Shown: positions 212 to 48,853 of the stretch, in pieces
How positions within the stretch are numbered: the first letter of the stretch is position 1
How the letters are laid out: the number at the start of each line of letters is the position of its first letter
Assembly: GCA_028716165.1 (NCBI GenBank)
Contig: JAQUQI010000002.1
Span: 183,829 to 247,828 of the forward strand
Direction of reading: 5' to 3'
DNA length: 64,000 nucleotides
Source of the DNA: Candidatus Omnitrophota bacterium
GTDB taxonomy: Bacteria; Omnitrophota; Gorgyraeia; JABMRG01
Position numbers and translations under genes: made by a program
The notes under the pieces: model-generated
Told to the model about the DNA's origin: nothing
What the model saw: the letters and a program-made list of their open reading frames with translations, nothing else
Database searches by the model: none

Positions 212-493
212 TGATGACACGCGGGTCAATCCCAGATCCTTCGCGGCCTACTCTGGCCTCGCTTATCGCCGCTCTGGATGACAGGCGGAGAACGCCTGTC
301 ATTCCGAGCGAAGCGAGGAATCTGGTACTCATTTCACTCCCAGATCCTTCGCGACCTACGCTGGCCTCGCTTATTGCCGCTCTGGATGACAGGCGTATGA
401 CGCTTGCCCCGACTCGTGCCGCTCTGGATGACACACGGGGTCACCCTCTGTCATTCAGAGGAGCGCCGAAGGCGCGACGAAGAATCTAATACT
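212..493. repeat. Mosaic intergenic repeat array 1a. Modules seen: CCCAGATCCTTCGCG, CCGCTCTGGATGACAGGCG-n5-CGCCTGTCATTCCGAGCGAAGCGAGGAATC, and TGTCATTCAGAGGAGCGCCGAAGGCGCGACGAAGAATCTAATACT.
   Basis: Direct reading. The same modules recur at 11 other loci in the window in both orientations. ORFs in the track across this region (189..434, 211..489) are repeat-derived. Confidence 0.85.
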
Positions 494-764
494 TACTCAA
501 ATCATGCCAATTAGGGTTAAGCGTTTCTATTAAAGCTATTTTTTTCTCTCTGCTCCAGCCCTTAATCCGCTTTTCCCTGGTAATAGCGTCTTCTATATTA
601 TCTGTTGTTTCGTAATATACCAATTTGTCTATGTTATACTTTTTAGTGAAACCTTTGTTTGAATTATTTTTATGCTCAAGCACTCGTCTTTCTAAATTGT
701 TTGTAACGCCGGTGTATAATGTCTTGGAATGATTCGTCATGATGTAAACAAAATATTGTTTCAT
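486..764 (-). CDS. GIY-YIG nuclease family protein (URI-domain, YhbQ/UPF0213-like), nested inside repeat array 1
   Basis: 92 aa. Motifs YIMTN...LYTGVTNNLERRVLEHK and KRIKGWSREKK are typical of small stand-alone GIY-YIG proteins. Flanked on both sides by repeat modules. Confidence 0.65.
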   Translation of the reverse strand: MKQYFVYIMTNHSKTLYTGVTNNLERRVLEHKNNSNKGFTKKYNIDKLVYYETTDNIEDAITREKRIKGWSREKKIALIETLNPNWHDLSKY

Positions 765-767
765 TTG

Positions 768-1148
768 TTGACATCCCCTGCTGTTTCACACCCATGTCAT
801 TCCGGGTGCCCCTGTGACACGCGGACAACGCCTGTCATTCAGAGGAGCGCCGAAGGCGCGACGAAGAATCCAGTACTCATTTCACTCCCAGATCCTTCGC
901 GGCTGACGCGTGCCTCAATTATTGCCGCTCTGGATGACACACGTATGACGCTTGCCCCGCCGTCCGCCGCTCTGGATGACACACGGGTCACCCTCTGTCA
1001 TTCCGAGTGCCCCTGTGACATGCGGACAACGCCTGTCATTCAGAGGAGCGCCGAAGGCGCGACGAAGAATCTAATACTCGTCCGACCGTAACACATGAGT
1101 CACTCTTGTGACACACGGCCTACTCTAGCCCCGCTTACTGCCGCTCTA
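768..1148. repeat. Mosaic intergenic repeat array 1b (continuation of array 1 on the other side of the GIY-YIG gene)
   Basis: Repeated GTCATTCAGAGGAGCGCCGAAGGCGCGACGAAGAATC, CCGCTCTGGATGACA and CCCAGATCCTTCGCG modules. ORF 729..1091 is repeat-derived. Confidence 0.85.
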
Positions 1149-2154
1149 ATTTTGCGTCTTGGCTGGATATCAATGACGATTCATATGATATGTCTGTTAA
1201 TACGCCCTGGAGCATTGCCACTGCCGCGTAATCCGACGGGTTGTATTGCTTAATATTCTGGCTAACCATATTTATCTTTGTTATAAGCGCTTTATGGAGT
1301 GAGTCCAAATCTTCAAACTTTCTTATATCTTTGGCTAATTTATTTATGTCCTCGCCACTGCTTAATATGATATAGCGTTTAAGAAGGCCTGCCAGAGAGG
1401 GCAGTTTTTCCGGATTTATTATACCCCTTGACTGCCACGATTCAAACACACTGTTAATAGCATTATCAAGTTTGGTATTGCTAATATTGAACGCGGGTTC
1501 CACGCCGGCATAGCTGCTTCCGTCATATACTTTTTTCAAAGCGCTAAGCGCTGATGTAAGGCCCGTGTTTTCATAGATCTTTACTGCCGCCGCGGGCGAA
1601 AGCGCCTGTATCCTGCCTATCCATAATTTTTCAATAGCCGAAGATACCTGTGACTGCATACCGGGCCAGTGCATTGCGTCAATATGCTTATCCTGTGTTA
1701 TGGTGGCATTATTGACAGGCACAATCAGGCTCGCGTTATAATTATAGGCATTTCTGGCAATATTGGCATGGTTTATAACTACCGGGTCAGCTACTTTGGA
1801 TAATTCAAGTGATTTTTTATATACCTTTATCTTGTCTTCAAAACGAGGCAGATAATAATCTTTTATCATACCATAAGCTATTTCATTGGTGATTACCCTC
1901 ATTTCCGAAGGATTTATTTGATTATCAAACTGGACAATATTATATTTTTTAAGCAGTTGCGACATCTTGTCAACGGAGATTGTATTGGCCTTGCCGTTTA
2001 CCAGATCTATGGCCATCTTATTATAAAGATAGTCATTATTTTTCCACAGATTTTTATAACCCTTGATTTTATTATCCTGGGCATAGGTCGAGCCGGACTG
2101 GCATCCTATCGCGTATAATATTACAAGTATTAAGCTTATTTTTCTTATAAACAT
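1135..2154 (-). CDS. Hypothetical lipoprotein (signal peptide with lipobox-like LILVILYAIGC)
   Basis: 339-aa ORF, N-terminal hydrophobic segment followed by Cys. No family recognised. Confidence 0.5.
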   Translation of the reverse strand: MFIRKISLILVILYAIGCQSGSTYAQDNKIKGYKNLWKNNDYLYNKMAIDLVNGKANTISVDKMSQLLKKYNIVQFDNQINPSEMRVITNEIAYGMIKDYYLPRFEDKIKVYKKSLELSKVADPVVINHANIARNAYNYNASLIVPVNNATITQDKHIDAMHWPGMQSQVSSAIEKLWIGRIQALSPAAAVKIYENTGLTSALSALKKVYDGSSYAGVEPAFNISNTKLDNAINSVFESWQSRGIINPEKLPSLAGLLKRYIILSSGEDINKLAKDIRKFEDLDSLHKALITKINMVSQNIKQYNPSDYAAVAMLQGVLTDISYESSLISSQDAKLERQ

Positions 2155-2397
2155 AACTACCCTTTGGCCGTTTGTTTGGAGATTTCAAACGACAGATGGT
2201 TTTTAAAATCTTATTAAATAGTTATACTTTACTACAAATATATCATTATTTCAAAAATTGTCAACGTTTTTTATGAAAATATCTAAAATATCTGAAAGAA
2301 AATTTATTAAACCTGCGTCAATACAAATAAAGACAAATCAAAACCGCTTCCTCCTCTTTGCCGGGATGGAGCAAAACCTCTAAAGAAAGGGGGGAAC

Positions 2398-2661
2398 ATG
2401 GATCAAAATATTAATGTAAACGTGGAAAGGTTGTATAAACTTGAGGGCGATGGGGCATTAAAAGGCTTTGCTGATATTTCTATCTGTAACTGTATTATTG
2501 TAAAAGGGTTACGAATAGTTTCCGGCAAAAACGGCTTATTTGTCAGCATGCCGCAGGAATTAGGCAAAGACGGCAAATGGCATAATAGGGTTTCTGTTAA
2601 TAATGACTCCTTAAAAGACAAATTGAGCGAATTGGTGCTCTCTGCTTTCCAGGATGACTGA
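2398..2661 (+). CDS. spoVG: SpoVG family protein
   Basis: 87 aa. Pattern ...ISICNCIIVKGLRIVSGKNGLFVSMPQ... matches the SpoVG core (GLFVAMP). Strong Shine-Dalgarno AAAGGGGGG 6-14 nt upstream. Confidence 0.65.
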   Translation: MDQNINVNVERLYKLEGDGALKGFADISICNCIIVKGLRIVSGKNGLFVSMPQELGKDGKWHNRVSVNNDSLKDKLSELVLSAFQDD

Positions 2662-3034
2662 TAGACAGTTTGCCAATAGGCTCTCTCTTGGCAAAATTTC
2701 CGAAGGCATTGCCGTTAGATATTTGAGGCGTAAGCGATTCAAGATAATCGGGCGCAATTATTACTGCCGGGCAGGGGAGCTTGATATTATTGCCAAAAGA
2801 GGCCCGATATTTATCTTTGTTGAAGTGCGAAGCATCCGGGAGGGTTTTTTTGAAGACCCGCTGGATTCAATTACTCCTCTAAAAATTGAACGCATTAAGA
2901 CCCTTGCGCAGATATGGCTTATGAACAATCGTATTGATAATGTCCCCGTTCGTTTTGACGCCATAGGAATCATTCATAATAAACGTTTTTTCGGGAAAAG
3001 ATACACCATAACACATATTCAGGATGCCTTTTAA
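2654..3034 (+). CDS. yraN: YraN family endonuclease (UPF0102)
   Basis: 126 aa. GIAVRYLRRKRFKIIGRNYY..GELDIIAKRG..IFVEVRS matches the YraN signature. 8-nt overlap with spoVG. Followed by comM, the conserved yraN-yifB neighbourhood. Confidence 0.65.
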   Translation: MTDRQFANRLSLGKISEGIAVRYLRRKRFKIIGRNYYCRAGELDIIAKRGPIFIFVEVRSIREGFFEDPLDSITPLKIERIKTLAQIWLMNNRIDNVPVRFDAIGIIHNKRFFGKRYTITHIQDAF

Positions 3035-3075
3035 AGCTAAAAAGACAGCCAACAGCCCTATCAATTATATAAAAA

Positions 3076-4638
3076 ATGGCCAGAAACCTTTGCCAGAGGA
3101 GCCTGCAGATGCTTGCCAAATGCCAATCAAGGACAATAACCGGAACAAGTTCACGCCACATAGACGTTGAGGTTGATATCTCAAGCGGCATACGGTCATT
3201 TACCATAGTAGGCCTTCCTGATGCCGCCTGCCGCGAATCTGCCAAAAGAGTCATGTCTGCTATAAAAAATTCAGGTTTTAAGATGTCATGCTCAAAAATA
3301 ACCGTCAATCTCGCTCCTGCCCATCTGCGTAAAGAAGGCGCGATGTTTGACCTTGCCATTGCCATAGCAATATTGTCTGCCGAGTCCAAGATCAGCCAGA
3401 AGGCCTTGGACAGCAAGGTATTTTGCGGAGAGCTTTCTCTTGACGGAAGCCTTAGGCCGGTAAACGGTATGCTTTGCGTGGCAGATGATATTAAAGAAAC
3501 GCCTGATACGGAACTTATCCTGCCCTGGCAAAACATGCCCGAAGCGCGCGCGATAAATAATGCCCGATTAATGCCTGTTTCCTGCCTTGCTGAAACCGTC
3601 AGCTATATCGCCAATGGCACATTGCCCGAGCCAAGAGTTTGGCCTGCTTTGCCGGCTGATAATAATGAAAATAATGATATGGATTTTTCCGATATTAGAG
3701 GTAATTATCACGCTAAAAGGGCTGTAGAAATTGCCGTAGCCGGCGGCCACAATATATTGTTTATAGGCCCTCCTGGCACCGGCAAGACAATGCTTGCCCA
3801 GCGTATCCCTACCATTATGGGCGCCCTGACCAATGAAGAGTCTATCCAGACGAGCAAGGTTTATAGTATCCAGGGCTTACTTAATAACAAAAGCTTGATT
3901 ACCAGGCCGCCTTTCAGGGCCTTGCATCACTTTTCATCCGATGCCGGCATGCTCGGAGGCGGGTCAAATTATATAAACCCCGGCGAGATAAGCCTTGCCC
4001 ATAATGGCGTGCTCTTTCTTGATGAGCTTCCGGAATTCAGGCGCGATGTCCTTGAGGCGCTTAGACAGCCTATTGAGGACAAGGTTATCCGCATCACACG
4101 CGCCGGCAAATCAGTCACATATCCATGCGATTTCATGCTTGTTGCCGCCATGAATCCCTGCCCGTGCGGATATCTGACACACCCCAAAAAGACCTGCGTA
4201 TGCACACCCCATCAGGTCCACAAGTATTTATCTAAAATATCAGGCCCTCTCTTAGACCGCATAGATATGCATGTTGAGATAAGCCCGATTGATTACGACC
4301 AGTTATCGTCGGAATCAGGCATTGAGTCATCTTCCGCGATAAAATCAAGAATTGACAATGCCAAGGCCATACAGAGCGCGCGTTATCGCGGAAATAGATA
4401 TGCCCTGAACGCGCGGATTTCATATAAGGATATAGAAAAAGTATGCGCGCTCACAAAAGAGGCCTCTTCTATACTGAAACAAGCTATGCATGAATTGTTT
4501 GTAAGCGCTAGAGGATATGCCAAACTTCTCAAGGTGGCACGAACCATAGCTGATATCGCGGCAAGGCCTGTGATTGATGTTGAGGATATTGCTGAAGCCG
4601 TAAGCTATCGCAGTCTTGATACCCGCGCATGGCTTTAA
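3076..4638 (+). CDS. comM: YifB/ComM family Mg-chelatase-like AAA+ ATPase
   Basis: 520 aa. Lon-like N-terminal domain, Walker A GPPGTGKT, and a C-terminal ChlI-like region. The more likely start is the Met of MLAKCQS at 3106, by comparison with YifB N-termini. Confidence 0.8.
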   Translation: MARNLCQRSLQMLAKCQSRTITGTSSRHIDVEVDISSGIRSFTIVGLPDAACRESAKRVMSAIKNSGFKMSCSKITVNLAPAHLRKEGAMFDLAIAIAILSAESKISQKALDSKVFCGELSLDGSLRPVNGMLCVADDIKETPDTELILPWQNMPEARAINNARLMPVSCLAETVSYIANGTLPEPRVWPALPADNNENNDMDFSDIRGNYHAKRAVEIAVAGGHNILFIGPPGTGKTMLAQRIPTIMGALTNEESIQTSKVYSIQGLLNNKSLITRPPFRALHHFSSDAGMLGGGSNYINPGEISLAHNGVLFLDELPEFRRDVLEALRQPIEDKVIRITRAGKSVTYPCDFMLVAAMNPCPCGYLTHPKKTCVCTPHQVHKYLSKISGPLLDRIDMHVEISPIDYDQLSSESGIESSSAIKSRIDNAKAIQSARYRGNRYALNARISYKDIEKVCALTKEASSILKQAMHELFVSARGYAKLLKVARTIADIAARPVIDVEDIAEAVSYRSLDTRAWL

Positions 4639-4640
4639 TA

Positions 4641-5048
4641 TCTTGCCGAAGGCCCCCTCTGCCCTTGCGAGCGTCACGAGGCGAGGCCGGAGTCATACGC
4701 CTGTCATCCAGAGCCGCCGAAGGCGGGGCAAGCGTCATACGTGTGTCATCCAGAGCGGCGATCATTGAGGCAAGAGTCAGCCGCGAAGGATCTGGGTGTG
4801 ACCCCTCTGTCATCCAGAGCATCAGTACTAGATTCCTCGCTTCGCTCGGAATGACAACGGGTGCCCCACTTGTCATCCAGAGCGGCGATAATTGCGGCAC
4901 GCGTCAGCCGCGAAGGATCTGGGAGTGAAACGAGTACTGGATTCTTCGTCGCGCCTTCGGCGCTCCTCTTAAATGACAGTGGTGACTTTCGGAATGGCAA
5001 AAGTGGTACTCGGAATGACAGAAGTTGCCATCTGTCATTCAGAGCGGC
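4641..5048. repeat. Mosaic repeat array 2 (modules in reverse orientation: TGTCATCCAGAGCGG, GATTCCTCGCTTCGCTCGGAATGAC, GATTCTTCGTCGCGCCTTCGGCGCTCCTC)
   Basis: Direct reading. Starts immediately after the comM stop codon. ORFs 4529..4900, 4629..4928, 4746..5000 and 4861..5067 are repeat-derived. Confidence 0.85.
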
Positions 5049-5099
5049 AAAAAAAGCAACCTCTTAAGAAGAAGCTACTTATGGTGCTACAGATGCGGG

Positions 5100-5348
5100 T
5101 TAAGCCATTTGGAATATACCCATCAAATGCTTATTTATCATTCTGGGCTTGTTAGATGAAAACTTTTTTTGAAAGTCCACTATGGTTAACCCAAAAACTT
5201 TTTTAGTTATAGGGTCTTTTCTAATTATAATACCGTTTTCATCCATGTCACTAATTCCTTTTTTAGGAACGCCTAAGCACAAATAAAGCACATCCGCTGT
5301 TTTATCGTAGGCCATTCTTAGTGGAGCAAAAGGCTTTTGTCTATCCAT
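5100..5348 (-). CDS. DUF2283 family small protein (antitoxin-like partner of DUF4258)
   Basis: 82 aa. YDKTADVLYLCL ... GIIIRKD..TKKVFGLTIVDF matches the DUF2283 pattern. Overlaps the upstream small ORF by 31 nt. Confidence 0.55.
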   Translation of the reverse strand: MDRQKPFAPLRMAYDKTADVLYLCLGVPKKGISDMDENGIIIRKDPITKKVFGLTIVDFQKKFSSNKPRMINKHLMGIFQMA

Positions 5349-5692
5349 ATTAAATCACCTTTCTTCAATTTATCACTAATATAAGCAGTTTTTATAACTC
5401 TATTAATAATGTTTGCCACGACCACACGATAAAGGCTCTTACTTTTTATATTGTAATAAAGATAAATTTCTCTACTCTTCGTGCTTTCATATATAGCAAA
5501 TGTTTTGTCAAAAACTTTTTGTATAAATGTAACCGGGTTTTCAATTTCTGGGTGCATTAATCGGATATGTTTACAAGTATCAGGATACAGCTTGTATTTA
5601 TAACCTTTTATATCACTAAAATAACAAGTCTGCGCAATAATTTGATCACCAGCAGATATTTTTTTCTTCTTCATGTGGATATATATTATCAA
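5318..5692 (-). CDS. Small protein, possible DUF4258-like toxin partner. The start is more likely the Met of MKKKKIS.
   Basis: Overlapping two-gene cassette with the DUF2283 gene. The weak H..R....I motif (KHIRLMHPEI) is only suggestive. The assignment rests mostly on the conserved DUF2283/DUF4258 pairing. Confidence 0.3.
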   Translation of the reverse strand: MIIYIHMKKKKISAGDQIIAQTCYFSDIKGYKYKLYPDTCKHIRLMHPEIENPVTFIQKVFDKTFAIYESTKSREIYLYYNIKSKSLYRVVVANIINRVIKTAYISDKLKKGDLIWIDKSLLLH

Positions 5693-5769
5693 AAAAGATT
5701 ATATATATCAAGAACTATTTAAAACGGGGTTACGTCTGGGCTGACCCATGTGTCAGTATATGTATTGCA

Positions 5770-6226
5770 GGCGTCCTATTTGGACACACCCTATGTGCTC
5801 AATGGAAATGCCCCCTATCATCCAGAGTGGCCGAAGGCGGAGCAAGCGTCATACGCCTGTCATCCAGAGCGGCGATAATTGCAGCACGCGTCAGCCGCGA
5901 AGGATCTGGGAGTGAAATGAGTACTGAATTTTTCGTCGCGCCTTCGGCGCTCCTCTTAAATGACAGTGGTGACGTTCGGAATGACAGAAGTGGTGCTCGG
6001 AATGACAGAGGGTGACCCGCCTGAAAGTCAGTATTGGATTCCTCGCTTCGCTCGGAATGACAGGCGTTCTTCGCCTGTCATCCAGAGCGGAACCGGCAAA
6101 GTAAGAGTCGTTAGCGAAGGATCTGGGTGTGACTTCCGTGTGCCGTCCGGAGTGAGAGTACTAGATTCTTCGTCGCGCCTTCGGCGCTCCTCTGAATGAC
6201 AATAGGGATGCTCGGAATGACAAACG
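5770..6226. repeat. Mosaic repeat array 3. Terminal module E (GGCGTCCTATTTGG) is at the left end; CTCGGAATGACA-type units are at the right end.
   Basis: Direct reading. ORFs 5827..6015 and 5960..6199 are repeat-derived. Confidence 0.85.
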
Positions 6227-6234
6227 ATCTTGTC

Positions 6235-6813
6235 TCATTTAAGCTTTATGATTTTAGATTTAAAAATATTGTTCAGAAAAGGGTTCTTACCCTTTTTTTT
6301 CTTCTCAAACTCTTTATCGCTTAAGTTTATCACATTAAATTCGCGGCCTGTATCTTTCTGTAATATAGCGATGGCTCTTTGCAATTCCAAAACAGAATGT
6401 GTGCCAATAGCTAAAATATCTATATCGCTTGAAGAATCCATTTTGTTAGCCGCGTATGAACCGAATAAATAAGCTTCCTGAAGCCCTTTGATCCTATTAA
6501 CCATATCGCTAAGTTTTTTCTCTATACCGTAGGTTTTTAAGAATATTTGGCGATAATGCTCCAAAATCGGATTATTTTTCGCAAGGAAATAATATCTTTG
6601 CTTTCCACGAAACTCACTTTTTAAGAGGCCTCCTTTTTCCAATTCCTTAAGCTTGGTTTCGGTATTTTTAGGGTCAATTTCTAAAATCCTGGCCAACTCA
6701 TTAATGTAAGCCTGGGCATCGGGGTTAAGAAAAAAATAATCCAGCAATTTTATTGTTATTTTAGAACGAAAAGATATCATATTTTCACCATAATTATGGT
6801 AATAAATTACCAT
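6235..6813 (-). CDS. Winged-helix (ArsR-like) DNA-binding domain fused to a Pol-beta-type nucleotidyltransferase domain
   Basis: 192 aa. The N-terminal half is wHTH-like. The C-terminal half carries GSYAANKMDSSSDIDIL, the G[SG]x9-13Dx[DE] NTase signature. Confidence 0.55.
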   Translation of the reverse strand: MVIYYHNYGENMISFRSKITIKLLDYFFLNPDAQAYINELARILEIDPKNTETKLKELEKGGLLKSEFRGKQRYYFLAKNNPILEHYRQIFLKTYGIEKKLSDMVNRIKGLQEAYLFGSYAANKMDSSSDIDILAIGTHSVLELQRAIAILQKDTGREFNVINLSDKEFEKKKKGKNPFLNNIFKSKIIKLK

Positions 6814-6852
6814 AATTGTCTATTTTGTCAAGTGAATTATATGCGCGGTATT

Positions 6853-7088
6853 GGAGGCGTCCTATTTGCGGAAGTAAGACGAGTATTGGATTCTTCGTCG
6901 CGCCTTCGGCGCTCCTCTGAATGACAAGGCGTACTCCATGTGTCATCCAGAGCGGAACCGGCGAAGCCAGAGTCGTTAGCGAAGGATCTGGGGGTGAAAT
7001 GAGTACTGGATTCTTCGTCGCGCCTTCGGCGCTCCTCTGAATGACAGTGGTAACGCTCGGAATGACAAGCGAGGCTCGGAATGACACA
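6853..7088. repeat. Mosaic repeat array 4 (module E at the left end, reverse-orientation modules, CTCGGAATGACA units at the right end)
   Basis: Direct reading. ORF 6794..7096 is repeat-derived. Confidence 0.85.
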
Positions 7089-7118
7089 TGAGCCACCCCT
7101 ATAGCCTTTTAAGCCGCG

Positions 7119-7442
7119 TTATGACCTATCATTTAGACAGTTTTCAATATCCTTAAGGCGGGAATCAAAGTTGTCAAGGCGGTTTTCTATGTTTTCAAGG
7201 CGAGAATTTGTCTCAAGAAACCTGCGGGCAGTAAACTCATCAATACTTTCAAATATTATTAGCCCATTAACATCAGTTACTTGCGTTCCTTCCGGCACAA
7301 GCCGGTTTACAGAACCTACCTTTTTAAATTCCATACCCGGTTTGGGACCCACGCTTTGATTTTGCGGTTTGTCCTCGGCAAAAGAGCAGGTATTGACAGC
7401 AAATATCAATATCATTACGCATAATATAGCGGGTATTTTCAT
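7119..7442 (-). CDS. Small secreted hypothetical protein (signal peptide)
   Basis: 107 aa. N-terminal MKIPAILCVMILIFAVNTCSFA. C-terminal half is charged and coiled-coil-like. Confidence 0.4.
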   Translation of the reverse strand: MKIPAILCVMILIFAVNTCSFAEDKPQNQSVGPKPGMEFKKVGSVNRLVPEGTQVTDVNGLIIFESIDEFTARRFLETNSRLENIENRLDNFDSRLKDIENCLNDRS

Positions 7443-7443
7443 A

Positions 7444-8445
7444 TTATCCGCGTGCCCTTTCTGTTATTTTCATGATTTTATCAAAAACCTCATCAACCCT
7501 TATCTCCTGCATACACGGGCCAAAATCATGCCTTATCACGTCTTTGTTGCAAACTACATTCATCCCCGGACAGCACGGCATGCATGGCAAAGTTTTTGCG
7601 GCCCTTACTATGTTATGGCGGTGAAAATACGGATAAAAACAATCAATAGATGTCGGGCCGTATAGGCCTATGCTATTGATGCCCATACAGCTGGCAATGT
7701 GTAAAAGGCTTGAATCAGGCCCGATAAAGACATTGCACTTACTTATTAAGGCGATGGCCTGTTCTAAAGTAGTCTGGCCCGCCCTTATTATATCGGCCGA
7801 AAGCGATGACAATACGGTGCTTGAGAATTTACTCCCGTCACTCTTGCCAAGGGCGATTACTTTCAAGCCTTTTTCGCGCTTTAACCTGTCCGCTAAGCTG
7901 TTCCATCTTTCAACAGGCCAGCTTTTGAGCGTCCATGCCGCCAAAGGCATTATACCGGCGATGGCCTCGCCTTGCCTGATATTATTTTTTTTAAAAAAAT
8001 CAAGGGCGAAATCTTCGTCTTTTCGCGCGAGAGCAAAATCAAAACGCGCCGAAGGGCAATTTATCCCATTTTGCCTTAACAGGGCAAGATATCTATCAAC
8101 AGGGTGTATATGGGCATTTTTATTGTTCCCAACGCTCCATACCGAACGTGAGCGCAAAAAAACATATCTGGCAGAGCTTTTGAGCGCGATTGCCAGGTCA
8201 AAGTTTGTTTTTCTTAAACCCATGACAAACCTGGCCTGGTTTATAAAACCTTTGTCCGCGCCGCTCCTGTCATAGATTATCACATTATCTATGCCTCTGT
8301 ATCCTTCCACGAGTTCGCGGCAGCGCGGCGATGTCACAAAAGACAACACAGCGCCGGGATAGGCATCTTTCAAAGGCCGCACAACGGCCATATTATAGCA
8401 AACATCGCCGATATTGGAATGCCCGATAATCAGTATATTTTTCAT
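7444..8445 (-). CDS. Glycosyltransferase family 9 (ADP-heptose:LPS heptosyltransferase-like)
   Basis: 333 aa. N-terminal ILIIGHSNIGDV and overall architecture typical of RfaF/RfaC-type GT9 enzymes. Confidence 0.65.
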   Translation of the reverse strand: MKNILIIGHSNIGDVCYNMAVVRPLKDAYPGAVLSFVTSPRCRELVEGYRGIDNVIIYDRSGADKGFINQARFVMGLRKTNFDLAIALKSSARYVFLRSRSVWSVGNNKNAHIHPVDRYLALLRQNGINCPSARFDFALARKDEDFALDFFKKNNIRQGEAIAGIMPLAAWTLKSWPVERWNSLADRLKREKGLKVIALGKSDGSKFSSTVLSSLSADIIRAGQTTLEQAIALISKCNVFIGPDSSLLHIASCMGINSIGLYGPTSIDCFYPYFHRHNIVRAAKTLPCMPCCPGMNVVCNKDVIRHDFGPCMQEIRVDEVFDKIMKITERARG

Positions 8446-13598: not shown

Positions 13599-13704
13599 TA
13601 ATTACCCCTTTCTATTTATACTAATTATAATACTATACATATAGGAGTGTCAATTGATTAGTAGTATTAAATTCAATTTAAAATAAACGTCTAAGGCGCG
13701 GAGG

Positions 13705-14076
13705 AAGGATACAGTACTGATTTTACTCCCAGATCCTTCGCTAACGACTCTTGTCTCGCCGGTTCCGCTCAGGATGACATAAGGGTCACCCCCAGATCCT
13801 TCGCGACCGAGGCGTGCTTTGCTTGGCTGTCGCTCTGGATGACAGGCAAAGAACGCCTGTCATTCCGGGCGCTCCACTCTGTCATTGGGAGCGCCTCGCT
13901 TGTCATTCAGAGGAGCGCCGAAGGCGCGACGAAGAATCTAGTACTCATTTCACTTCCAGATCCTTCGCTAACGAAACTTGCTTCGCCGTTCCCGCTCAGG
14001 ATGACAGGCAAAGTACGCCTGTCATTCCGAGCGAAGCGAGGAATCTAATACTCTCACTCCGAACGGCACATACGGA
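13705..14076. repeat. Mosaic repeat array 5 (forward-orientation modules, ends with CTCACTCCGAACGGCACATACGG)
   Basis: Direct reading. ORFs 13814..14152 and 13839..14048 are repeat-derived. Confidence 0.85.
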
Positions 14077-14131: not shown

Positions 14132-14170
14132 AAAAAAGAACCCCCGGATTGACCCGGGGGTTCTTTTTAT
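14132..14170. terminator. Bidirectional Rho-independent terminator (GAACCCCCGG-attgac-CCGGGGGTTC, A-run upstream and T-run downstream)
   Basis: Perfect 10-bp GC-rich stem at 14138-14147/14154-14163, flanked by AAAAAA (14132-14137) and TTTTTAT (14164-14170). Lies 22 nt downstream of the OMP gene (minus strand). Confidence 0.75.
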
Positions 14171-16304: not shown

Positions 16305-16630
16305 AAGCGGCTCTGTCATTGGGAGCAAAGCGAGGAATCCAGTACTCATTTCACGCCCAGATCCTTCGCGGCCGAGGCGTGCTTCGCCTTGTGCCGCTCT
16401 GGATGACAGGTGGGGTACTCCCAGATCCTTCGCGGCCGAGGCGTGCTTTGCTTGGCTGTCGCTCTGGATGACAGGTGGGGTACTCCCAGATCCTTCGCGG
16501 CCGAGGCGTGCTTCGCCTTGTGCCGCTCTGGATGACAGGCGAAGAACGCCTGTCATTCCGAGCAAAGCGAGGAATCTAATACTCGTCTCACTCCAGAAAT
16601 AGGACGCTTGCAATACTCGATACCCGCGAT
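16305..16630. repeat. Mosaic repeat array 6 (forward-orientation modules; module E in reverse, CAAATAGGACGC, at the right end)
   Basis: Direct reading. ORFs 16236..16613 and 16276..16602 are repeat-derived. Confidence 0.85.
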
Positions 16631-18192: not shown

Positions 18193-18618
18193 CACTTCCA
18201 GATCCTTCGCGGCCAACGCCTGCTCCGATTATTGCCGCTCTGGATGACATAAGGGTCACGTCCAGATCCTTCGCGGCTCACTCTTGCCCCGATTATCGCC
18301 GCTCTGGATGACAGGCGCATGACACTGGCCCCGCCCCCCGCTGCTCTGGATGACACGTGGGTTACCCCCTGTCATTCAGAGGAGCGCCGAAGGCGCGACG
18401 AAGAATCCAGTACTCATTTCACTCCCAGATCCTTCGCTAACGAAGCTTACCTCGCTGATACCGCTCTGGATGACACAGGGGTCACGTCCAGATCCTTCGC
18501 GGCTTACTCTGGCCTCGCAGCCTGCCGCTCTGGATGACACATGGGCAACGTCTGTCATTGGGAGCGAAGCGAGGGATCTAGTACTCTCACTTCAAACGAC
18601 AAGTACGAGTCACTCCAA
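18193..18618. repeat. Mosaic repeat array 7, abutting the 3' end of tRNA-Arg
   Basis: Direct reading. ORFs 18319..18537, 18350..18622 and 18376..18558 are repeat-derived. Confidence 0.85.
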
Positions 18619-18626: not shown

Positions 18627-18702
18627 GGTGCCCCTACCGCGACTCGAACACGGCCACATGGTTTAGGAAACCACTGCTCTATCCATCTGAGCTATAGGGG
18701 CA
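18627..18702 (-). tRNA. tRNA-Arg (anticodon CCU), with encoded 3' CCA
   Basis: Read from the minus strand: GCCCCTATAGCTCAGATGGATAGAGCAGTGGTTTCCTAAACCATGTGGCCGTGTTCGAGTCGCGGTAGGGGCACCA. The 7-bp acceptor stem GCCCCTA/TAGGGGC, D-arm GCTC/GAGC, anticodon loop TTCCTAA and T-arm GTTCGAGTC were folded by eye. Confidence 0.75.
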
Positions 18703-25924: not shown

Positions 25925-26263
25925 GCGCTCGCCTGCCCGTCACGCAAGGGGCAGTACCAGATCCTTCGCGGCCTACTCTGGCCTCGCCTCCTGCCGCTCT
26001 GGATGACAGACAGAGTACGTCTATCATTCCGAGCGAAGCGAGGAATCTAATACTTGTCTGCCCGCTACGCAAGGGGCAGTACCAGATCCTTCGCGGCCAA
26101 GGCGTGCTCTGCCTTCCGCCGCTCTGGATGACATAATATGACTCGTGCCCCGCTTATTGCCGCTCTGGATGACATAATATGACTCATGCCCCGCTTATTG
26201 CCGCTCTGGATGACAGACAGAGTACGTCTGTCATTCCGAGCGAAGCGAGGAATCTAATACTCG
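25925..26263. repeat. Mosaic repeat array 8, with an internal 41-bp tandem duplication (26119-26200)
   Basis: Direct reading. ORFs 25887..26072, 26179..26511 (5' part) and 26184..26369 are repeat-derived. Confidence 0.85.
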
Positions 26264-26265: not shown

Positions 26266-26838
26266 TTACTCATCAATACTTGTCTCAACATGTTGCGCCA
26301 TAAGCTCGCCAACCTGATACGGCACCTTGGTAATAAAATAATGCTCGGTGATAACATGGCCCAGCTCATGCGCCATGATACCGCGCGCTATGGTGCTTTC
26401 GCAGGTATATATTGTTTTGAGAGCATGTATATAATAAGATACCAGTTCCTGGCCTTCTATTTTTTTACCAATCCGGACAAGGTTGTCATTAAGCTGTTTT
26501 TGATTTTTTAATATCCTTATATCAATCTTGACATTTCTCGGATACATATCCAATATTCTGCAAGCCTTTAAGAAAAGGCTGTCAAATTCATCGGCAAAGC
26601 CTTTGTCTGTATAAGGTTTTGATGAGCCGAACAATCCAAACAATGAGTCACCCGATGAAGCTATGCGCCTAAAAGTTTTTTCCTTATTGACATCAGCGCC
26701 TACAATAAGCCTTACATATTTGCCGTCAATGTATTGCGCTAAGGTTTCAGAATTTGTATCCTGCCCAAGGCAAATGCCCACGTTCAAAAGACAGGCGGCC
26801 AGGCAAAGAGATATCGCGATCCCCGTCGTTTTAATCAT
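26266..26838 (-). CDS. Lipoprotein with HExxH motif (putative zinc metallopeptidase)
   Basis: 190 aa. Lipobox ISLCLAAC. MAHELGHVITEH near the C-terminus. Family not recognised. Confidence 0.4.
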   Translation of the reverse strand: MIKTTGIAISLCLAACLLNVGICLGQDTNSETLAQYIDGKYVRLIVGADVNKEKTFRRIASSGDSLFGLFGSSKPYTDKGFADEFDSLFLKACRILDMYPRNVKIDIRILKNQKQLNDNLVRIGKKIEGQELVSYYIHALKTIYTCESTIARGIMAHELGHVITEHYFITKVPYQVGELMAQHVETSIDE

Positions 26839-27431
26839 TTACCGTCGGTTTTAAAATAATTTAATTTTTCAGACAGTTCTTTTATTCTGCCGGCTAAATT
26901 ACCCAGCCCGTTTTCCAGAAAATTGCCGGGATTATTCTTATCTATCTTTGATATGTCATCATTAATGCCTGACATTATTTTTTTCATCTCGGACAGCTTT
27001 TCCGATAAAACTTTTGCTATACTATTGACGCCTTCAGCCATATCCTGCGCCTGGTCTGTTGAGCGCAATTTTATATAAGCCGTAAGGTCGCCGTTTCCTA
27101 TCTGGTTCAGGCGGTGTTCTATATTAAACATAGCCCCTGCTATCCTGTGGCTCATATACATTACCACAAGAGTCGTTATGATGCCCATTACAAAAAGCAC
27201 CAAAAGGACCGCCCAGATTAATGCCGGTAAGATATAATCGGATGTATTGACTATGGAAAGGCGTGAATGGATAAATGATGTTGTAGTGCTTGACCTGGAA
27301 TACAGATAAAGCCCCAATGCCGATACCGCCAGGCCTATACCCATAAGCAGGCAGAACCTTAATATAAATATGCCCTGAAATTTCTTTTTGATAAAATAAT
27401 TTTTTCTTCTGGAGTCTTTTTGACCTATCAT
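26835..27431 (-). CDS. Membrane protein with HAMP domain
   Basis: 198 aa. Two TM segments followed by a HAMP-like linker (HRIAGAMFNIEHRLNQIGNGDLTAYIKLRSTDQAQDMAEGVN). No output domain. Confidence 0.45.
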   Translation of the reverse strand: MIGQKDSRRKNYFIKKKFQGIFILRFCLLMGIGLAVSALGLYLYSRSSTTTSFIHSRLSIVNTSDYILPALIWAVLLVLFVMGIITTLVVMYMSHRIAGAMFNIEHRLNQIGNGDLTAYIKLRSTDQAQDMAEGVNSIAKVLSEKLSEMKKIMSGINDDISKIDKNNPGNFLENGLGNLAGRIKELSEKLNYFKTDGK

Positions 27432-27898
27432 TTCGCGTCCTCCAATACGCGCAAAAACTTATCTACGCGCGCTTTTTTATACAGCTTATTATACCAACTC
27501 TGCATCATCTTGGCTTTTTCGCTGTCAGAAAGGCCTTGTTTGCCGGATATCTCCCGGTCTTTCCTGTCTAAAAGCTCTTTTCTTAGGGCATGCTTCCAGT
27601 AGCGCTCTATTGTTTTCATAAAAGTTTTTTCTTTGTCAAGGCCCAGCCTTTGCGCCTCCTGGACAAGTATTTCGTTTGCTATGATATCATCCAACATCTG
27701 CTCGCCGCTTAATACGCCTTTTTTACCCATATATGTTGTGTCAAGTTCTGACTTATAGTCTTCAACGGTCATGTAATAGTCGTTAATTCTGGCGACTGTT
27801 TTTTGGGGGTCATATTTTTTACCACAGCCGCATAAAAAAACCGGTAATATAAGAAGGACGGCTGATAAAATATTTATTATTGTTGGAAGAGTTTTCAT
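27428..27898 (-). CDS. Lipoprotein with SurA N-terminal-like chaperone domain
   Basis: 156 aa. Lipobox LPVFLCGC. VARINDYYMTVEDY...ILVQEAQRLGL resembles the SurA/PpiD N-terminal domain. Confidence 0.4.
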   Translation of the reverse strand: MKTLPTIINILSAVLLILPVFLCGCGKKYDPQKTVARINDYYMTVEDYKSELDTTYMGKKGVLSGEQMLDDIIANEILVQEAQRLGLDKEKTFMKTIERYWKHALRKELLDRKDREISGKQGLSDSEKAKMMQSWYNKLYKKARVDKFLRVLEDAK

Positions 27899-27940: not shown

Positions 27941-28400
27941 ATTTGGGGCAAAACGCCTGTCACTCCAAGCGCTACATCTGTCATTCCGGACGGTACATAC
28001 GGGTCAATCCCAGATCCTTCGCGGCCTACTCTGACCCCGACTCCTGCCGCTCTGGATGACAGGTGAAGTACACCTGTCATTCCGAGCGAAGCGAGGAATC
28101 TAATACTCGTCTCACTCCCAGATCCTTCGCGACCGAGGCGTGCTTTGCTTGGCTGTCGCTCTGGATGACACATGGGTCAACTTTGTCATTCAGAGGAGCG
28201 CCGAAGGCGCGACGAAGAATCTAATACTGGCTTCACTTCCAGATCCTTCGCTAACGACTCTTGCCTCGCCGGTTCCGCTCTGGATGACAGGAGCATGACG
28301 CTTACCCCGACTCCTGCCGCTCTGGATGACAGGCGGGATACTTCCCGTTGAGCACGCAGGGTGTCTCCAAATAGGACGCCTGCGATATTCGATATTGCGA
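27941..28400. repeat. Mosaic repeat array 9 (forward-orientation modules; module E reverse, CCAAATAGGACGCC, at the right end)
   Basis: Direct reading. ORF 27895..28173 is repeat-derived. Confidence 0.85.
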
Positions 28401-42415: not shown

Positions 42416-42518
42416 TGGAAACTTTTGTCAGGTTTTATCAGTTCATATGCCGGTTAAAAAGCAACAATACTTAATGTTATATTATGTTAATCTGTTTGTC
42501 AAGTTAAACCAGCATAAT

Positions 42519-42892
42519 GGCCGCTCCGCGTGTCATCCAGAGCGGCGATAATTGGGGCAAGAGTCGTTAGCGAAGGATCTGGGAATGAAGCGTGCGTCAT
42601 CCAGAGCGGCGATAATTGGGGCAAGAGTCGTTAGCGAAGGATCTGGGAATGAAATGAGTACTGGATTCTTCGTCGCGCCTTCGGCGCTCCTCTGAATGAC
42701 AAAGTGATGCGCCTGTCATCCAGAGCGGCACGAGTCGGGGTCAGAGTAGGCCGCGAAGGATCTGGGAGTGAAATGAGTACTGGATTCTTCGTCGCGCCTT
42801 CGGCGCTCCTCTGAATGACAGAAGTGGTGTTCGCAATGACAGAAGTGACGTTCGCAATGACAGAAGTGACGTTCGCAATGACACCAGATAAT
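42519..42892. repeat. Mosaic repeat array 10, with a ~64-bp tandem duplication (42527-42655) and 3 x 21-bp tandem units GACAGAAGTGACGTTCGCAAT (42827-42889)
   Basis: Direct reading. Lies between the dnaE start and the IMPDH-like stop. Confidence 0.85.
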
Positions 42893-44058: not shown

Positions 44059-44169
44059 TATAAACTCCTTGATTTATTGATTGTTTTGTTATCATATCTA
44101 AACGGATGATATTTGTCAAGCTTGTTTTTGGGCGCGTATTTTAATATATATTTAAAGCCATAAAATTTT

Positions 44170-45635
44170 CTACGGCCGTTCATTTTTAAGCGTAGAGGCG
44201 AGATATTTATTGAAGTTTGAATCCATTCTTTCAACGCTGTTGGCATAGGCTTTGGTAAACGCCTTCTGCCAGGGCTTTATTACCTTTAATTCATAAAAAA
44301 ATCTTTTAAGTTTATACGGGCCGTATTTTTCATAAAGGTAAGAAAAAAACATCCTTGACTGAAGGTATGCCGCGGTAATGGCCTGGCGCGAATCTTTATA
44401 TGAGAACATACCGTCAATGAGCTCAAGGCTGAAGGGGCCGTTGGCCTTCATATACCCGGCGAGGAATACCCTGTCCTGGGCAGTTATGGCGGAATCAGGC
44501 TCATTAAACTGCGCGAAACCCTCGTTCAGCCAAACCGGTACATCAGCGCCTAAATTTAGATACAGGACGGCATGAGAATATTCATGAAACAGCAAACGCT
44601 TTAAATTTTTATCATCACGCGATATGTCCTGATACCTAAGGCGTATCTTACCGTCATAAAGGCCCTGCGTCCAGCTCGGCTGGTCCGTGGCCTGCTCAAA
44701 CTGGCCGTCATCATATATGATCACGGGTATAATCTCTTCGGAGGATAAACCATATTTATCGCGCAGGGCTTTTCTGGCCTCGTTTAAAATATTTAATATA
44801 ATGCCGGCGTATTCAGCTCCGATATCTTTGTCAAATCGTATCTTGAAATAACTCTTCGCCTTTGTGCCGAATCCGCTCTCAACCGGCCGCTCTCTTTCCA
44901 GCGCCTCCACGCGTTTTTTGATATCGGGGTTTTGCGGGTCAAGAGTATGGGCGCGTTTAAGATATTTCAGGGCATCGCCAAATTTGTCCTGATTGTAATA
45001 GAGATTACCGGCAACTATACAAGCCGCGGCGTCATTGGGCATAAGCGAAACAGCCTCAAGCGCCCTGGCCAGGGCCTTGTCATAGCGCTTATTTTTTTGA
45101 AGATAGCCGGAATAATTCAGCAATATAACATAAAGGTTTTTCTTTAATACATCATCAAGCGGCAGATATTTTAGCCCCTGCCTGATATTGTCAAGAGCTG
45201 ATTCGTATTCGTTGGAATTGGCAAGCTTTAGCGCGAAATTATTATAAAGCGCTGACAACTGCTTTCTGATATACTCATCATCAGGGGCTAGTTTAAAAGC
45301 GCGCAGGCTGTTCCCTATAGCCTCTTCGTCGCGGCCCTGCCGGGCATATACCGCGGCCATATTATGATAGGCATTGCTTAAATTTTTTTTAATCGTGACA
45401 TTTGCCGGTTCATTTTGCAGGGCATATTCAAAATAAGTTATCGCCTGCCTGAAATCATTATTGCGCATGCTTTCCCGGCCTTTTTTTGCAAAATCATCGG
45501 CTATGTCCGCACAGGCGGCAGAGGGCAAAAGAAAAACAGCAAAGGCCAGGCAAAAAGCCCTTAATAAAACAGCGGGGCGCGTATCACGCCGCCCCGCTGT
45601 TTTGCCATCTTGCATATGATGGGACTTGGAAAACA

Positions 45636-45636
<1 letters not shown>
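44170..45636 (-). CDS. Secreted TPR-repeat protein with C-terminal HExxH (putative metallopeptidase-like) domain
   Basis: 488 aa. Signal peptide ending SAACA, multiple TPR units, FHEYSHAVLY near the C-terminal third. Start codon overlaps the groEL stop (translational coupling). Confidence 0.5.
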
Positions 45637-47288
<1,652 letters not shown>

Positions 47289-47347
47289 TTAAAATTTTCC
47301 GCAAACCGCGTTTTTTGCAAAAAGCCGGTCCGCCGTGTTTTTAAACA

Positions 47348-47635
47348 CTATTTTACTATAGCAAGAATATCTTCTTCCTTTACGATAAGCATGTCTTCGC
47401 CGTCAATCTTTATCTCGGTGCCAGAGTATTTTCCATAAAGCACCTTGTCTCCGACCTTTACTTCCAGAGAGATAAGTTTTCCATCCTCTGTCTTGCCTTT
47501 TCCTACTGCTATCACTTTGCCTTCCTGCTGTTTTTCTTTAGCGGTATCAGGTAAAATAATACCACCCTTTGTCTTTTCTTCAGCCTCTAATGGCTGGACA
47601 AGGACCCTGTCGCCTAATGGTTGAATCTTTGCCAT
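47348..47635 (-). CDS. groES: Co-chaperonin GroES (Cpn10)
   Basis: 95 aa. Perfect SD AAGGAGGTG 5 nt upstream. Mobile-loop and roof-hairpin pattern. Confidence 0.95.
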
Positions 47636-47667
47636 TTTTGCACCTCCTTATGCTTTTTTGGCTATTG

Positions 47668-47694
47668 TTAGCACTCGCAATTGATGAGTGCTAA
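47668..47694. promoter_or_regulatory. CIRCE operator (HrcA binding site): TTAGCACTC-N9-GAGTGCTAA, perfect match to consensus
   Basis: TTAGCACTCgcaattgatGAGTGCTAA. 33 nt upstream of the groES start, downstream of the predicted promoter. Confidence 0.9.
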
Positions 47695-47753
47695 ATTTTA
47701 ATATACACATCATCATATCCGATTACATTGATTATTTTTTGTTCAGGAATTGG

Positions 47754-47781
47754 ATTATAGCAAATTCTGAAATTTTGTCAA
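47754..47781 (-). promoter_or_regulatory. Sigma-70 promoter for groESL: -35 TTGACA (47781-47776), 16-nt spacer, extended -10 TGcTATAAT (47762-47754)
   Basis: The minus strand reads cTTGACAaaatttcagaatTGcTATAATcc. Located 120-145 nt upstream of groES, with CIRCE between it and the RBS. Confidence 0.7.
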
Positions 47782-48026
47782 GAATTTTTTTTGCGGGAAT
47801 TTTTAAGATTTTTTGCGGATTTTTTTTAGGGCTTCTTAAAACAAATTTTTAACTTACCGCGTAGTCTTGAGAGATATAGTATCACGATAATCCGCCAGGA
47901 GACGTAAAGCAGTCTCTTGCGTAAGCGTCATTATACCGACGCGTAACACGCAGTATCTGCGTAAACGTCTCCACGCTTTTCGGGGTTTCTTAAACCCATA
48001 CCGGTTTATGCGCATGACACAGCTTT

Positions 48027-48413
48027 TCATACTGACGAGAGATGGCATTTGGCTGAATACACCTCTTTGGCTACTTTGTCAATCACGGCCTTATTATCTT
48101 CTCCTATGGTTGAGAATTCGGCCGCTACATGATAAAGCGCCGGGTATTTGGTGCTGACAACCTTTTCATTGCGTATTACCGTCCCTATGCAGTTGATAGG
48201 CTCCTTTGTGAAAGGAAATACTATCTTAAGCTGTATCTGGGTTCCTACAGGTATAGGCCTGTCATAATTAAAGAGCATGCCGCCCGCGCCAAGGTCTCTG
48301 GCTGTAACAATGTCCCAGTCTTTTGGAAGCGGTGGAACAGTGTTAGGGTGCATGAACTTAAACCATGACATGAACGCCCTGACAATCCTTGGATACTTAC
48401 GCTTGTCTATCAT
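48027..48413 (-). CDS. Single-domain PilZ protein (c-di-GMP receptor candidate)
   Basis: 128 aa. RKYPR (RxxxR) and DLGAGG (DxSxxG-like) motifs. Lies directly between the giant gene and groESL. Confidence 0.6.
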   Translation of the reverse strand: MIDKRKYPRIVRAFMSWFKFMHPNTVPPLPKDWDIVTARDLGAGGMLFNYDRPIPVGTQIQLKIVFPFTKEPINCIGTVIRNEKVVSTKYPALYHVAAEFSTIGEDNKAVIDKVAKEVYSAKCHLSSV

Positions 48414-48464
48414 AGTTCACCTCCTTCCTGTATCAGATTTCAAGTGAATACTCTATACTGTTTT

Positions 48465-48853
48465 ACTTGTCATTGCGAGTATTTTCGCTGTCATTCCGAG
48501 CGAAGCGAGGAATCTAATACTGACTTCACTCCCAGATCCTTCGCTAACGACTCGTGCCTCGCCTTCCGCCGCTCTGGATGACAGGCGTATGACGCTTGCC
48601 TCGCCTTCCGCCGCTCTGGATGACGCACGGGTCACTCCCAGATCCTTCGCGACCGAGGCGTGCTTTGCCTTCTGTCGCTCTGGATGACGCACGGGTCACT
48701 CCCAGATCCTTCGCTAACGACTCGTACCTCGCCTTCCGCCGCTCTGGATGACAGGCGTATGACGCTTGCCTCGCCTTCCGCCGCTCTGGATGACAGGCGG
48801 GTCACTTTGTCATTCAGAGGAGCGCCGAAGGCGCGACGAGGAATCTAATACTG
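48465..48853. repeat. Mosaic repeat array 11, immediately 3' of the giant gene
   Basis: Direct reading. Contains internal duplications: 48530-48600 resembles 48700-48790. ORFs 48453..48692, 48660..48848 and 48766..49065 (5' part) are repeat-derived. Confidence 0.85.

Follow-up and report, generated by a model that had tools for sequence, protein, structure and literature searches.

Intergenic hairpin arrays of an Omnitrophota chromosome as a probable dense, divergent instance of the Ssn/SRM system

A 64,000-nucleotide stretch of the Candidatus Omnitrophota bacterium contig JAQUQI010000002.1 (assembly GCA_028716165.1, positions 183,829 to 247,828 of the forward strand; the whole stretch is called the window below) carries twelve arrays of short palindromic repeats between its genes, which raises the question of what element these arrays are built from and which enzyme recognizes it. 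The initial annotation of this DNA described the arrays as mosaics of four modules, A to D, and likened them to repetitive extragenic palindromic (REP) sequences and bacterial interspersed mosaic elements (BIMEs) or to Correia-type repeats. The present analysis indicates that the arrays are very probably clusters of a single hairpin element, denoted X, that belongs as a divergent member to the group of CGTC/TGTC-tagged REPs (Di Nocera, De Gregorio and Rocco, 2013, BMC Genomics 14:522, PMC3733652) and of the NTS and SRM motifs associated with Ssn nucleases (Chenal et al., 2025, Nat Commun 16:2388, PMC11893778), X being the predicted cognate single-stranded DNA (ssDNA) site of a small Ssn nuclease encoded between arrays 1 and 2 (486-764, minus strand).

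The twelve intergenic arrays are real, and the modules common to them occur far beyond chance. All segments of the initial annotation are present (Table 1) and sum to 4,450 bp, or 6.95% of the window, in line with the approximately 7% originally given. Module A (CCCAGATCCTTCGCG, with up to 2 mismatches) is found in 29 copies in the window where 0.16 are expected, module C in 11 copies where 0 are expected, and the core GTCAT[CT]CNGAG in 66 copies, every one within the arrays, the expectation being approximately 0.24 by our own arithmetic. A 12-mer repeat map independently returns the same 12 blocks and nothing similar elsewhere in the window. All the arrays are located in a housekeeping chromosomal region, with genes including dnaE, groEL, aspS, hisS, glyQS, ppdk, recO, ybeY and a sigma-70 factor, and they occupy 12 of the approximately 19 intergenic gaps of at least 100 bp, as counted from the map of open reading frames (ORFs), so the assertion that they sit at almost every operon boundary is roughly right. 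Arrays occur in either orientation, as had been noticed, with module A on the plus strand in eight and on the minus strand in four (those starting at 4641, 5770, 6853 and 42519), and X is present on both strands in every array. The repeats recur at varying intervals (21-23, 42 and 64/65 bp), and the apparent spacers are themselves repeated, which bears out the remark that there is no CRISPR-like spacing.

The four modules, which had been treated as separate units, reduce to one element in three sizes. The reverse complement of the A..B unit reads GTCATCCAGAGCGGC-insert-GCGAAGGATCTGG, in the same frame as D and C (GTCATTCCGAGC-GAA-GCGAGGAATC), so that A..B is the C/D hairpin with a longer insert, read on the opposite strand. 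Because A..B, C and D share this frame, a single definition covers all three: GTCA, a 3-nt arm, NGAR, the interior, YGAR, the complementary arm and then T. The definition has 52 matches in the window, three of which are read-throughs containing another listed element; the 49 distinct elements, approximately one per 1.3 kb, include 8 of type C (24 nt), 12 of type D (36 nt) and 29 of type A..B (46-48 nt). The unpaired 5' tag is TGTC in 50 of the 52 matches and CGTC in the remaining two. The stem starts with AT in all 52 and contains two covarying base pairs; it further comprises a C-G pair, a T-A or C-G pair, two invariant tandem G.A/A.G mismatches and a 2-bp clamp. The interior is a GNA triloop in type C, a GCGCC-GAA-GGCGC extension (already recognized in module D) in type D and an insert of 20-26 nt in type A..B, and the stem is followed by an invariant C and then Y-R, in the variants C-T-A, C-C-A and C-T-G.

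Within the arrays, X elements alternate head-to-head and tail-to-tail and are accompanied by tandem copies of the 5' half of X, with periods of 21-23 and 42 nt. The reading order is C or D, a 16-nt spacer, A-N22-B, a palindromic spacer of approximately 15 nt, and again C or D, with optional additional 42-bp B units. The stem reported for the junction of B and C is indeed a perfect inverted repeat, of 10 bp (ATGACAGGCG / CGCCTGTCAT). At both ends the arrays run out in ragged, incomplete copies of X with no duplications, in contrast to Correia-type miniature inverted-repeat transposable elements (MITEs). Tandems of the 5' half (tag plus left arm) lie at 42800-42880, 384-432 and 932-980 of the window and are also found on a cyanobacterial plasmid (L086, 397-465 and 1038-1106). 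These half-X units cannot form the hairpin; cleavage of the Neisseria NTS is possible with its two halves on separate strands (Chenal et al., 2025).

Short X elements from all sources, collected with a pattern that does not demand complementarity so as to avoid circularity, allow the pairing of the arms to be assessed. Among the 49 unique sequences of this set, the outer triplets are fully complementary in 42, with six arm types, and the loop is GNA in 26; the inner pairs switch from T-A to C-G and from G-C to A-T. An alignment of 35 X sequences contains double compensatory changes in six of the seven pairs, with 91% of the cells paired, and the observed covariation score was reached by none of 500 shuffles, slid registers pairing at 17-48%. 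In the 25-nt alignment of X from all sources, the G-T-C-A of the tag, both G.A/A.G mismatches and the 3' T-C are invariant. A composite sequence made up of X-AB, the junction and X-C has a predicted folding energy of -29.7 kcal/mol (z = -6.3). The loop and clamp of type C, GCGAAGC, is reportedly a classic, extraordinarily stable DNA mini-hairpin, known from the work of Hirao and Yoshizawa in the 1990s, and its presence fits a structure formed at the DNA level.

The ssn gene that lies between arrays 1 and 2 is embedded in these repeats, its stop codon (TAG) falling within the TAATACT sequence that trails module D in array 1. The translation begins MKQYFVYIMTN...LYTGVTNNLERRV and matches the Pfam GIY-YIG domain over residues 3-75 (E 2e-15), with no other domain. 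Compared with SsnA of Neisseria gonorrhoeae (the gonococcal orthologue was used, not CAX49033.1 itself), the protein is 44% identical over 88 aa (pairwise BLASTP E 3e-25), and tblastn against the 94-aa gonococcal ORF gives E 1e-15 with 95% coverage, within the range defined for homologues in the published survey (E <1e-10, at least 75% coverage; Chenal et al., 2025). Residues Y7, Y17 and E64 of the window protein are invariant in a 25-member family alignment and align with the gonococcal residues; in SsnA, mutation of Y6, Y17 or E64 abolished activity (Chenal et al., 2025). The only solved relatives are UPF0213 proteins, with weak matches (E 4e-6 and 7e-4) that are compatible with a separate family but do not prove one. 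At E <=1e-10 the database contains 6,702 homologues, the closest of which (70-88% identity) include proteins of Planctomycetota, Nitrospirota and Thermodesulfobacteriota. Many homologues bear N- or C-terminal extensions that are translated X, e.g., CHSERSKGG and SQILRLAQNDRG, so that repeats of this kind add spurious tails to annotated GIY-YIG proteins.

These observations modify two expectations of the initial annotation. A REP-associated tyrosine transposase (RAYT) was proposed as the enzyme to look for, whereas no Y1 transposase was detected in the window ORFs scanned and the gene for the predicted cognate nuclease, which lies inside the coordinates that the annotation covered, had been overlooked. 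The warning that long pseudo-ORFs would be annotated as false genes holds in part: ORFs do run through the repeats on both strands and, apart from the repeat-derived tails, short orphan ORFs have been called over repeats in L067, L068 and L081, but no gene was called by JGI in arrays 1 and 2 (L051).

The link between ssn and tagged hairpins extends to other genomes. Tagged hairpins were identified with a detector that requires a 5-bp stem (a 6-bp version missed most X elements); across 15 independent homologue loci from several phyla, 36 of them lie within 300 bp of the gene, whereas their frequency in the rest of these loci predicts 1.8 (approximately 20-fold, P ~5e-34). Eleven of the 15 loci have such hairpins near the gene. 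The repeat sequence shifts with the protein clade while the tag is kept: distant homologues (51-61% identity) are flanked by different tag-keeping hairpins, e.g., CGTCATTGCCGGGCTTGACCCGGCAATCCAT and GTCATTCCCGCGGAAGCGGGAACCCAT, and distant viral homologues lack an exact X core, yet have clade-specific tagged hairpins on inspection. The gonococcal ssnA itself is flanked on both sides by the canonical NTS (CGTCATTCCCGCGCAGGCGGGAATCTAG), amid an NTS mosaic in both orientations; the source of this gene, NZ_CP119140.1, is a 2.17-Mb N. gonorrhoeae chromosome that is filed as a plasmid in PLSDB.

Close homologues of ssn are inserted in type I restriction-modification (R-M) operons, where they separate hsdM from hsdS, as well as in the interval from nuoD to nuoH and alongside a Piwi (pAgo-like) gene; in each of these settings, tagged hairpins adjoin the gene on one or both flanks and are scarce in the rest of the locus. 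On a plasmid of Planktothrix agardhii, a homologue with 71% identity lies between genes for an MmeI-type enzyme and DISARM drmA, and its flanks consist of three half-X units, X, an inverted long X and three half-X units. The array architecture is therefore not unique to the Omnitrophota genome, as this plasmid shows the same grammar. The insertions in the R-M, nuo, Piwi and DISARM settings suggest mobility of the cassette or a link to defense islands. When the 50 loci retrieved by DNA pattern were searched with the nuclease by tblastn, a single one matched (L024), and the repeats therefore far outnumber the ssn genes.

Scans with the DNA patterns also delineate the spread of X. In a metagenome scan for A and B separated by 2-30 nt, 34 contigs with a GC content of 38-69% were recovered, in which the flanks are invariant and the interior hairpin is different each time. 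A scan of GTDB species representatives for A-N18-26-B returned only one metagenome-assembled genome, from Anaerolineaceae, in which a related, shorter form of the repeat occurs. In viral contigs, scans detected neither module D nor the A..B unit. Twelve IMG/VR viral or proviral contigs of much higher GC content (L005-L016) contain an exact copy of the 25-nt module C, often within a long perfect inverted repeat whose arms are C and its reverse complement, approximately 30 nt apart; no GIY-YIG gene is encoded in the fetched flanks of these 12 contigs.

The association of ssn with hairpins that is re-derived here has already been published, and X is not a new kind of element. SsnA, a 94-aa single-domain GIY-YIG nuclease, recognizes the Neisseria NTS (CGTCATTCCCGCGMAVGCGGGAATCYRG), a component of dRS3, exclusively in ssDNA and on one strand only, cuts a few nucleotides 5' of the tag, and does not bind RNA (Chenal et al., 2025). 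Cleavage depends on three nucleotides 5' of the palindrome and binding on the C that follows it, SRMs were found near 71% of the ssnA homologues, and in N. meningitidis the system reduces transformation by NTS-bearing DNA (Chenal et al., 2025). The same features are found here: a single-domain GIY-YIG protein of approximately 92-94 aa whose gene is embedded in tagged hairpin repeats, the (C/T)GTC tag, the stem that starts with AT, the C-Y-R after the stem, and intergenic repeats in both orientations that cluster around genes; the cleavage and binding determinants of the Neisseria NTS are kept in X. The differences are the invariant tandem G.A mismatches in the stem, the GNA triloops or long inserts, the Omnitrophota host (the same variant being present in Nitrospirota, Thermodesulfobacteriota, Planctomycetota and on the cyanobacterial plasmid) and the density, which at 7% of the DNA appears very high.

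The CGTC-tagged REPs, whose tag is often TGTC, likewise have a stem that begins with AT and a short tail, form head-to-head dimers and apparently have no dedicated transposase (Di Nocera et al., 2013). X resembles them in the unpaired 5' tag, the AT start of the stem, the short 3' tail, the head-to-head dimers and the lack of an associated transposase, and differs in the G.A mismatches, in the three size classes and in that nearly all copies are clustered; the CGTC-tagged REPs have a CCA tail, rarely form clusters and were described in five phyla, Omnitrophota not being among them (Di Nocera et al., 2013). With the NIMEs of Neisseria (dRS3/NTS with RS elements), the arrays share mosaics of Ssn motifs in both orientations around ssnA, but the repeat sequences and the spacer modules are different. 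The spacers of Neisseria NIMEs are distinct RS elements of 50-150 bp, whereas the arrays of the window have short spacers of 15-16 nt, and their 'modules' are pieces of X. The REP/BIME/REPIN-RAYT systems of E. coli and Pseudomonas are alike in that a small nuclease, encoded by a single-copy gene with repeats on its flanks, recognizes a tagged hairpin on ssDNA, and in their mosaic arrays of alternating orientation; they differ in the GTAG tag and in the nuclease, an HUH Y1 transposase with a covalent intermediate rather than a GIY-YIG enzyme. The original comparison to structured, dense, REP/BIME-like mosaics thus stands, but the CGTC/TGTC tag sets the arrays apart from both the GTAG/RAYT and the Correia MITE classes. 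Literature searches for the exact module sequences or the translated repeat peptides returned only chance primer matches or POLRMT noise; those combining GIY-YIG with repetitive extragenic palindromic or with COG2827 gave nothing useful, and with palindromic intergenic repeats only papers on organelles.

Judged by these sequence comparisons, the system is very probably a dense, divergent Omnitrophota instance of Ssn/SRM. Several points weigh against assigning X to Ssn in this way. The published SRM string, HGTCWYN(0-2)YYVSBRHN(0-5)WNVSBRGN(0-2)RNCYNB, has one match in the window against 0.28 in shuffles, and no X element matches it; the string is narrow and also misses near-canonical elements in L063 and L064. 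The CGTC-tagged REP families have perfect stems of 8-9 bp and loops of 4-5 nt, whereas X is mismatched, with an interior of 3 or 20-26 nt. Because X lacks such a perfect stem and is not matched by the SRM string, we class it as a variant and not as a standard member. Nearest-neighbor folding of single X elements is weak (z of -0.5 for C, -1.0 for D and -0.2 to -3.5 for A..B), although, in our assumption, the folding parameters may under-credit sheared G.A pairs and GNA loops. Moreover, 4 of the 15 homologue loci have no tagged hairpin by the detector used, and the 64-kb window contains a single ssn gene. Finally, the source of ssDNA for Ssn in this organism is a guess, and a GIY-YIG enzyme cannot transpose DNA alone because it forms no covalent intermediates.

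A mechanism can be proposed by extension from the characterized enzymes of Neisseria, N. elongata, N. wadsworthii and Wolbachia (Chenal et al., 2025). X would fold on the strand that reads TGTCAT once the DNA becomes single-stranded, be it incoming transforming or conjugative DNA or intermediates of replication and repair, and Ssn would bind the hairpin together with the following C and cut a few nucleotides 5' of the tag, leaving double-stranded DNA and RNA untouched. Because X is present in both orientations at 12 of the approximately 19 operon boundaries, either chromosome strand would be cut into operon-sized pieces, which would limit or pattern homologous recombination across the array-bearing boundaries.

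The history of the arrays can be traced in relatives with syntenic regions from hisS to algE. X is absent from the 20 kb of synteny in a relative with 81% GlyQ identity, where the intergenic gaps measure 59-365 bp; in the closest relative (L081, 87% GlyQ identity), the PRT/tRNA-GT2 site holds a single intact X-C together with fragments of X. An insertion of approximately 2.5 kb between recO and glyQ, which consists of arrays 9 and 10 and three unknown genes (26266-27898), is absent in both relatives (contigs L081-L084); the three cargo genes have no Pfam or PADLOC match, and PADLOC has no match for ssn either. Identical X-AB inserts are found in arrays 6, 7 and 10, up to 14 kb apart, and the X-AB inserts are recombinant, with left and right halves shuffled between subtypes. 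Because synteny is retained in relatives that lack the arrays, and because inserts are shared and shuffled, the arrays are lineage-specific expansions that arose by duplication, dispersal and recombination. Their growth in this lineage would have involved local tandem duplication together with dispersal or gene conversion of units between arrays, and was probably promoted by nicking by Ssn followed by host repair. In addition, three of the corresponding operon boundaries of L081 (4083-4314, 11500-12124 and 13552-13862) are taken up by another intergenic repeat (CAGACGTTTTGAAAA...GGACAGTGTC...).

The same dynamics could be produced by a selfish replicator pair akin to REPIN/RAYT, in which X is the non-autonomous and X-ssn-X the autonomous, horizontally moving unit, X being copied to new intergenic sites via nicking by Ssn and host repair or template switching. 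This alternative differs from the reading of X as an Ssn site in purpose and origin, not in identity, and we regard it as possible but considerably less probable. It would account for the X-bracketed ssn cassettes inside conserved operons of unrelated taxa (hsdM/hsdS, nuoD/nuoH, MmeI/DISARM drmA), for proteins with 70-77% identity in Omnitrophota, Planctomycetota, Nitrospirota, Thermodesulfobacteriota and Cyanobacteriota, for the absence of arrays at orthologous sites in relatives and for the identical units dispersed among arrays; furthermore, the NTS-ssnA-NTS arrangement has been likened to an insertion sequence and to REP/BIME-RAYT by the authors who described it (Chenal et al., 2025). However, no pair of empty and filled sites with precise boundaries and no target-site duplications were found, the orientation of X relative to ssn is not fixed, GIY-YIG chemistry includes no strand-transfer activity, and no transposase for CGTC-tagged REPs was found by Di Nocera et al. 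(2013). The specific scheme in which Ssn nicks extruded or single-stranded X and host repair copies X, and occasionally X-ssn-X, to new sites and genomes is slightly more doubtful still. If true, it would provide the 'transposase' that has been missing for the CGTC-tagged REP superfamily and would represent DNA mobility without HUH, DDE or serine/tyrosine recombinase chemistry, and the arrays around the three-gene insertion would be traces of cargo capture.

It is unlikely that the arrays act mainly as RNA, that is, as stabilizers in 3' untranslated regions, terminators, insulators or processed small RNAs, as proposed for the REPs of E. coli. They do lie between the end of one operon and the next promoter, the hairpins would form in RNA as well, and many REPs have been argued to be transcribed (Di Nocera et al., 2013). 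Nevertheless, no Rfam family accounts for the arrays: a scan of the whole window at the gathering threshold returned tRNA only, and a scan of 150-7150 at E <=5 one chance snoRNA-like match. The arrays contain no T-tracts or terminator-like sites, their orientation relative to transcription is 8:3 with X on both strands of each, and SsnA, as mentioned above, does not bind RNA. Just outside array 6, there are a sigma-70 promoter that matches the consensus in 12 of 12 positions (13624-13653, minus strand) and a bidirectional terminator with a 16-bp stem (14133-14168); because canonical signals flank this array, the arrays fill the space between terminator and promoter and replace neither.

Mobilization of a classical REP/BIME by a RAYT (an IS200/IS605-like Y1 transposase) whose gene lies outside the window is very improbable: it would fit the BIME-like mosaic of hairpins in alternating orientation, but the tag is TGTC and not GTAG, the Y1_Tnp domain is absent from the scanned window ORFs, RAYT genes did not flank CGTC/TGTC-tagged REPs in any case surveyed (Di Nocera et al., 2013), and X is specifically associated with another nuclease. 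Nested Correia-like MITEs or degenerate coding repeats, which the high copy number and the long ORFs on both strands might suggest, can be practically dismissed, as there are no terminal inverted repeats with target-site duplications, the unit lengths (24, 36, 42, 46-48 and 64/65 nt) break the reading frame, and the pseudo-ORFs, which JGI did not call as genes in arrays 1 and 2, have no Pfam match above threshold, in agreement with the original view of the repeats as non-coding.

The assignment of X to Ssn would extend the Ssn/SRM system to Omnitrophota and to a cross-phylum subfamily. Because the X motif escapes the published SRM string, surveys that use this string would undercount such systems. 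The combination of tandem G.A mismatches and GNA loop is a distinct and well-defined candidate specificity for ssDNA tools, an application highlighted by the authors of the Ssn study. With 49 X elements at 12 boundaries, one nuclease gene and syntenic relatives without arrays, the locus offers a natural system for the study of repeat multiplication, a question that dates from the discovery of CGTC-tagged REPs without a transposase. In addition, short-read assemblies are interrupted by the arrays; the JGI contig that covers the end of the window with arrays 1 and 2 (L051) is 2,845 bp long.

Table 1. Repeat arrays and the ssn gene in the window. For arrays, the strand is that on which X of types C and D reads TGTCAT; (-) marks elements on the opposite strand.
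Feature	Coordinates	Strand	Content and context
Array 1	212..493	+	X-AB(-), X-C(+), X-AB(-), half-X(-), X-D(+); adjoins the ssn stop codon
ssn	486..764	-	Intact 92-aa single-domain GIY-YIG protein, SsnA homologue; between arrays 1 and 2
Array 2	768..1148	+	Degenerate half-X, X-D, X-AB(-), half-X(-), half-X, X-D, truncated X-AB; directly upstream of the ssn start
Array 3	4641..5048	-	Between comM-like gene (+) and toxin-antitoxin-like pair (-)
Array 4	5770..6226	-	Module E (CCAAATAGGACGCCTGCAATAC) at outer end
Array 5	6853..7088	-	
Array 6	13705..14076	+	Between strong bidirectional terminator 14133-14168 and promoter 13653-13624 (-)
Array 7	16305..16630	+	X-C elements bracket three tandem 64/65-bp X-AB units
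Array 8	18193..18618	+	Adjoins tRNA gene 18629-18701(-)
Array 9	25925..26263	+	Upstream of glyQ; one boundary of the three-gene insertion absent in relatives
Array 10	27941..28400	+	Downstream of recO; other boundary of the same insertion
Array 11	42519..42892	-	Between dnaE and IMPDH-like gene; three tandem 21-nt half-X units (TGTCATTGCGAACGTCACTTC)
Array 12	48465..48853	+	Between PilZ gene and giant ORF

Apart from X, some arrays contain a further module, E, which is located outside X at the outer end of arrays 4, 5, 7 and 10 (e.g., 5770-5800 and 16590-16615). A sigma-54 promoter considered in module E was dropped since the spacing is wrong, and hammerhead, box C/D-like and TIGR array interpretations of the repeats were dropped as well, their supporting features not being found.

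Small gene cassettes are located between arrays 3, 4 and 5 (5100-5692 and 6235-6813). One of these consists of a DUF2283-like gene and an unknown gene and looks like a toxin-antitoxin pair, and the other encodes a protein with helix-turn-helix and nucleotidyltransferase domains that matches the PADLOC candidate defense family PDC-M05A (5e-33). At the opposite end of the window, next to array 12, there is a giant ORF (48893-63961, minus strand) of more than 5,022 aa that runs past the window end and has no Pfam domain at E <=1e-5 in either half; giant genes are a known oddity of Omnitrophota.

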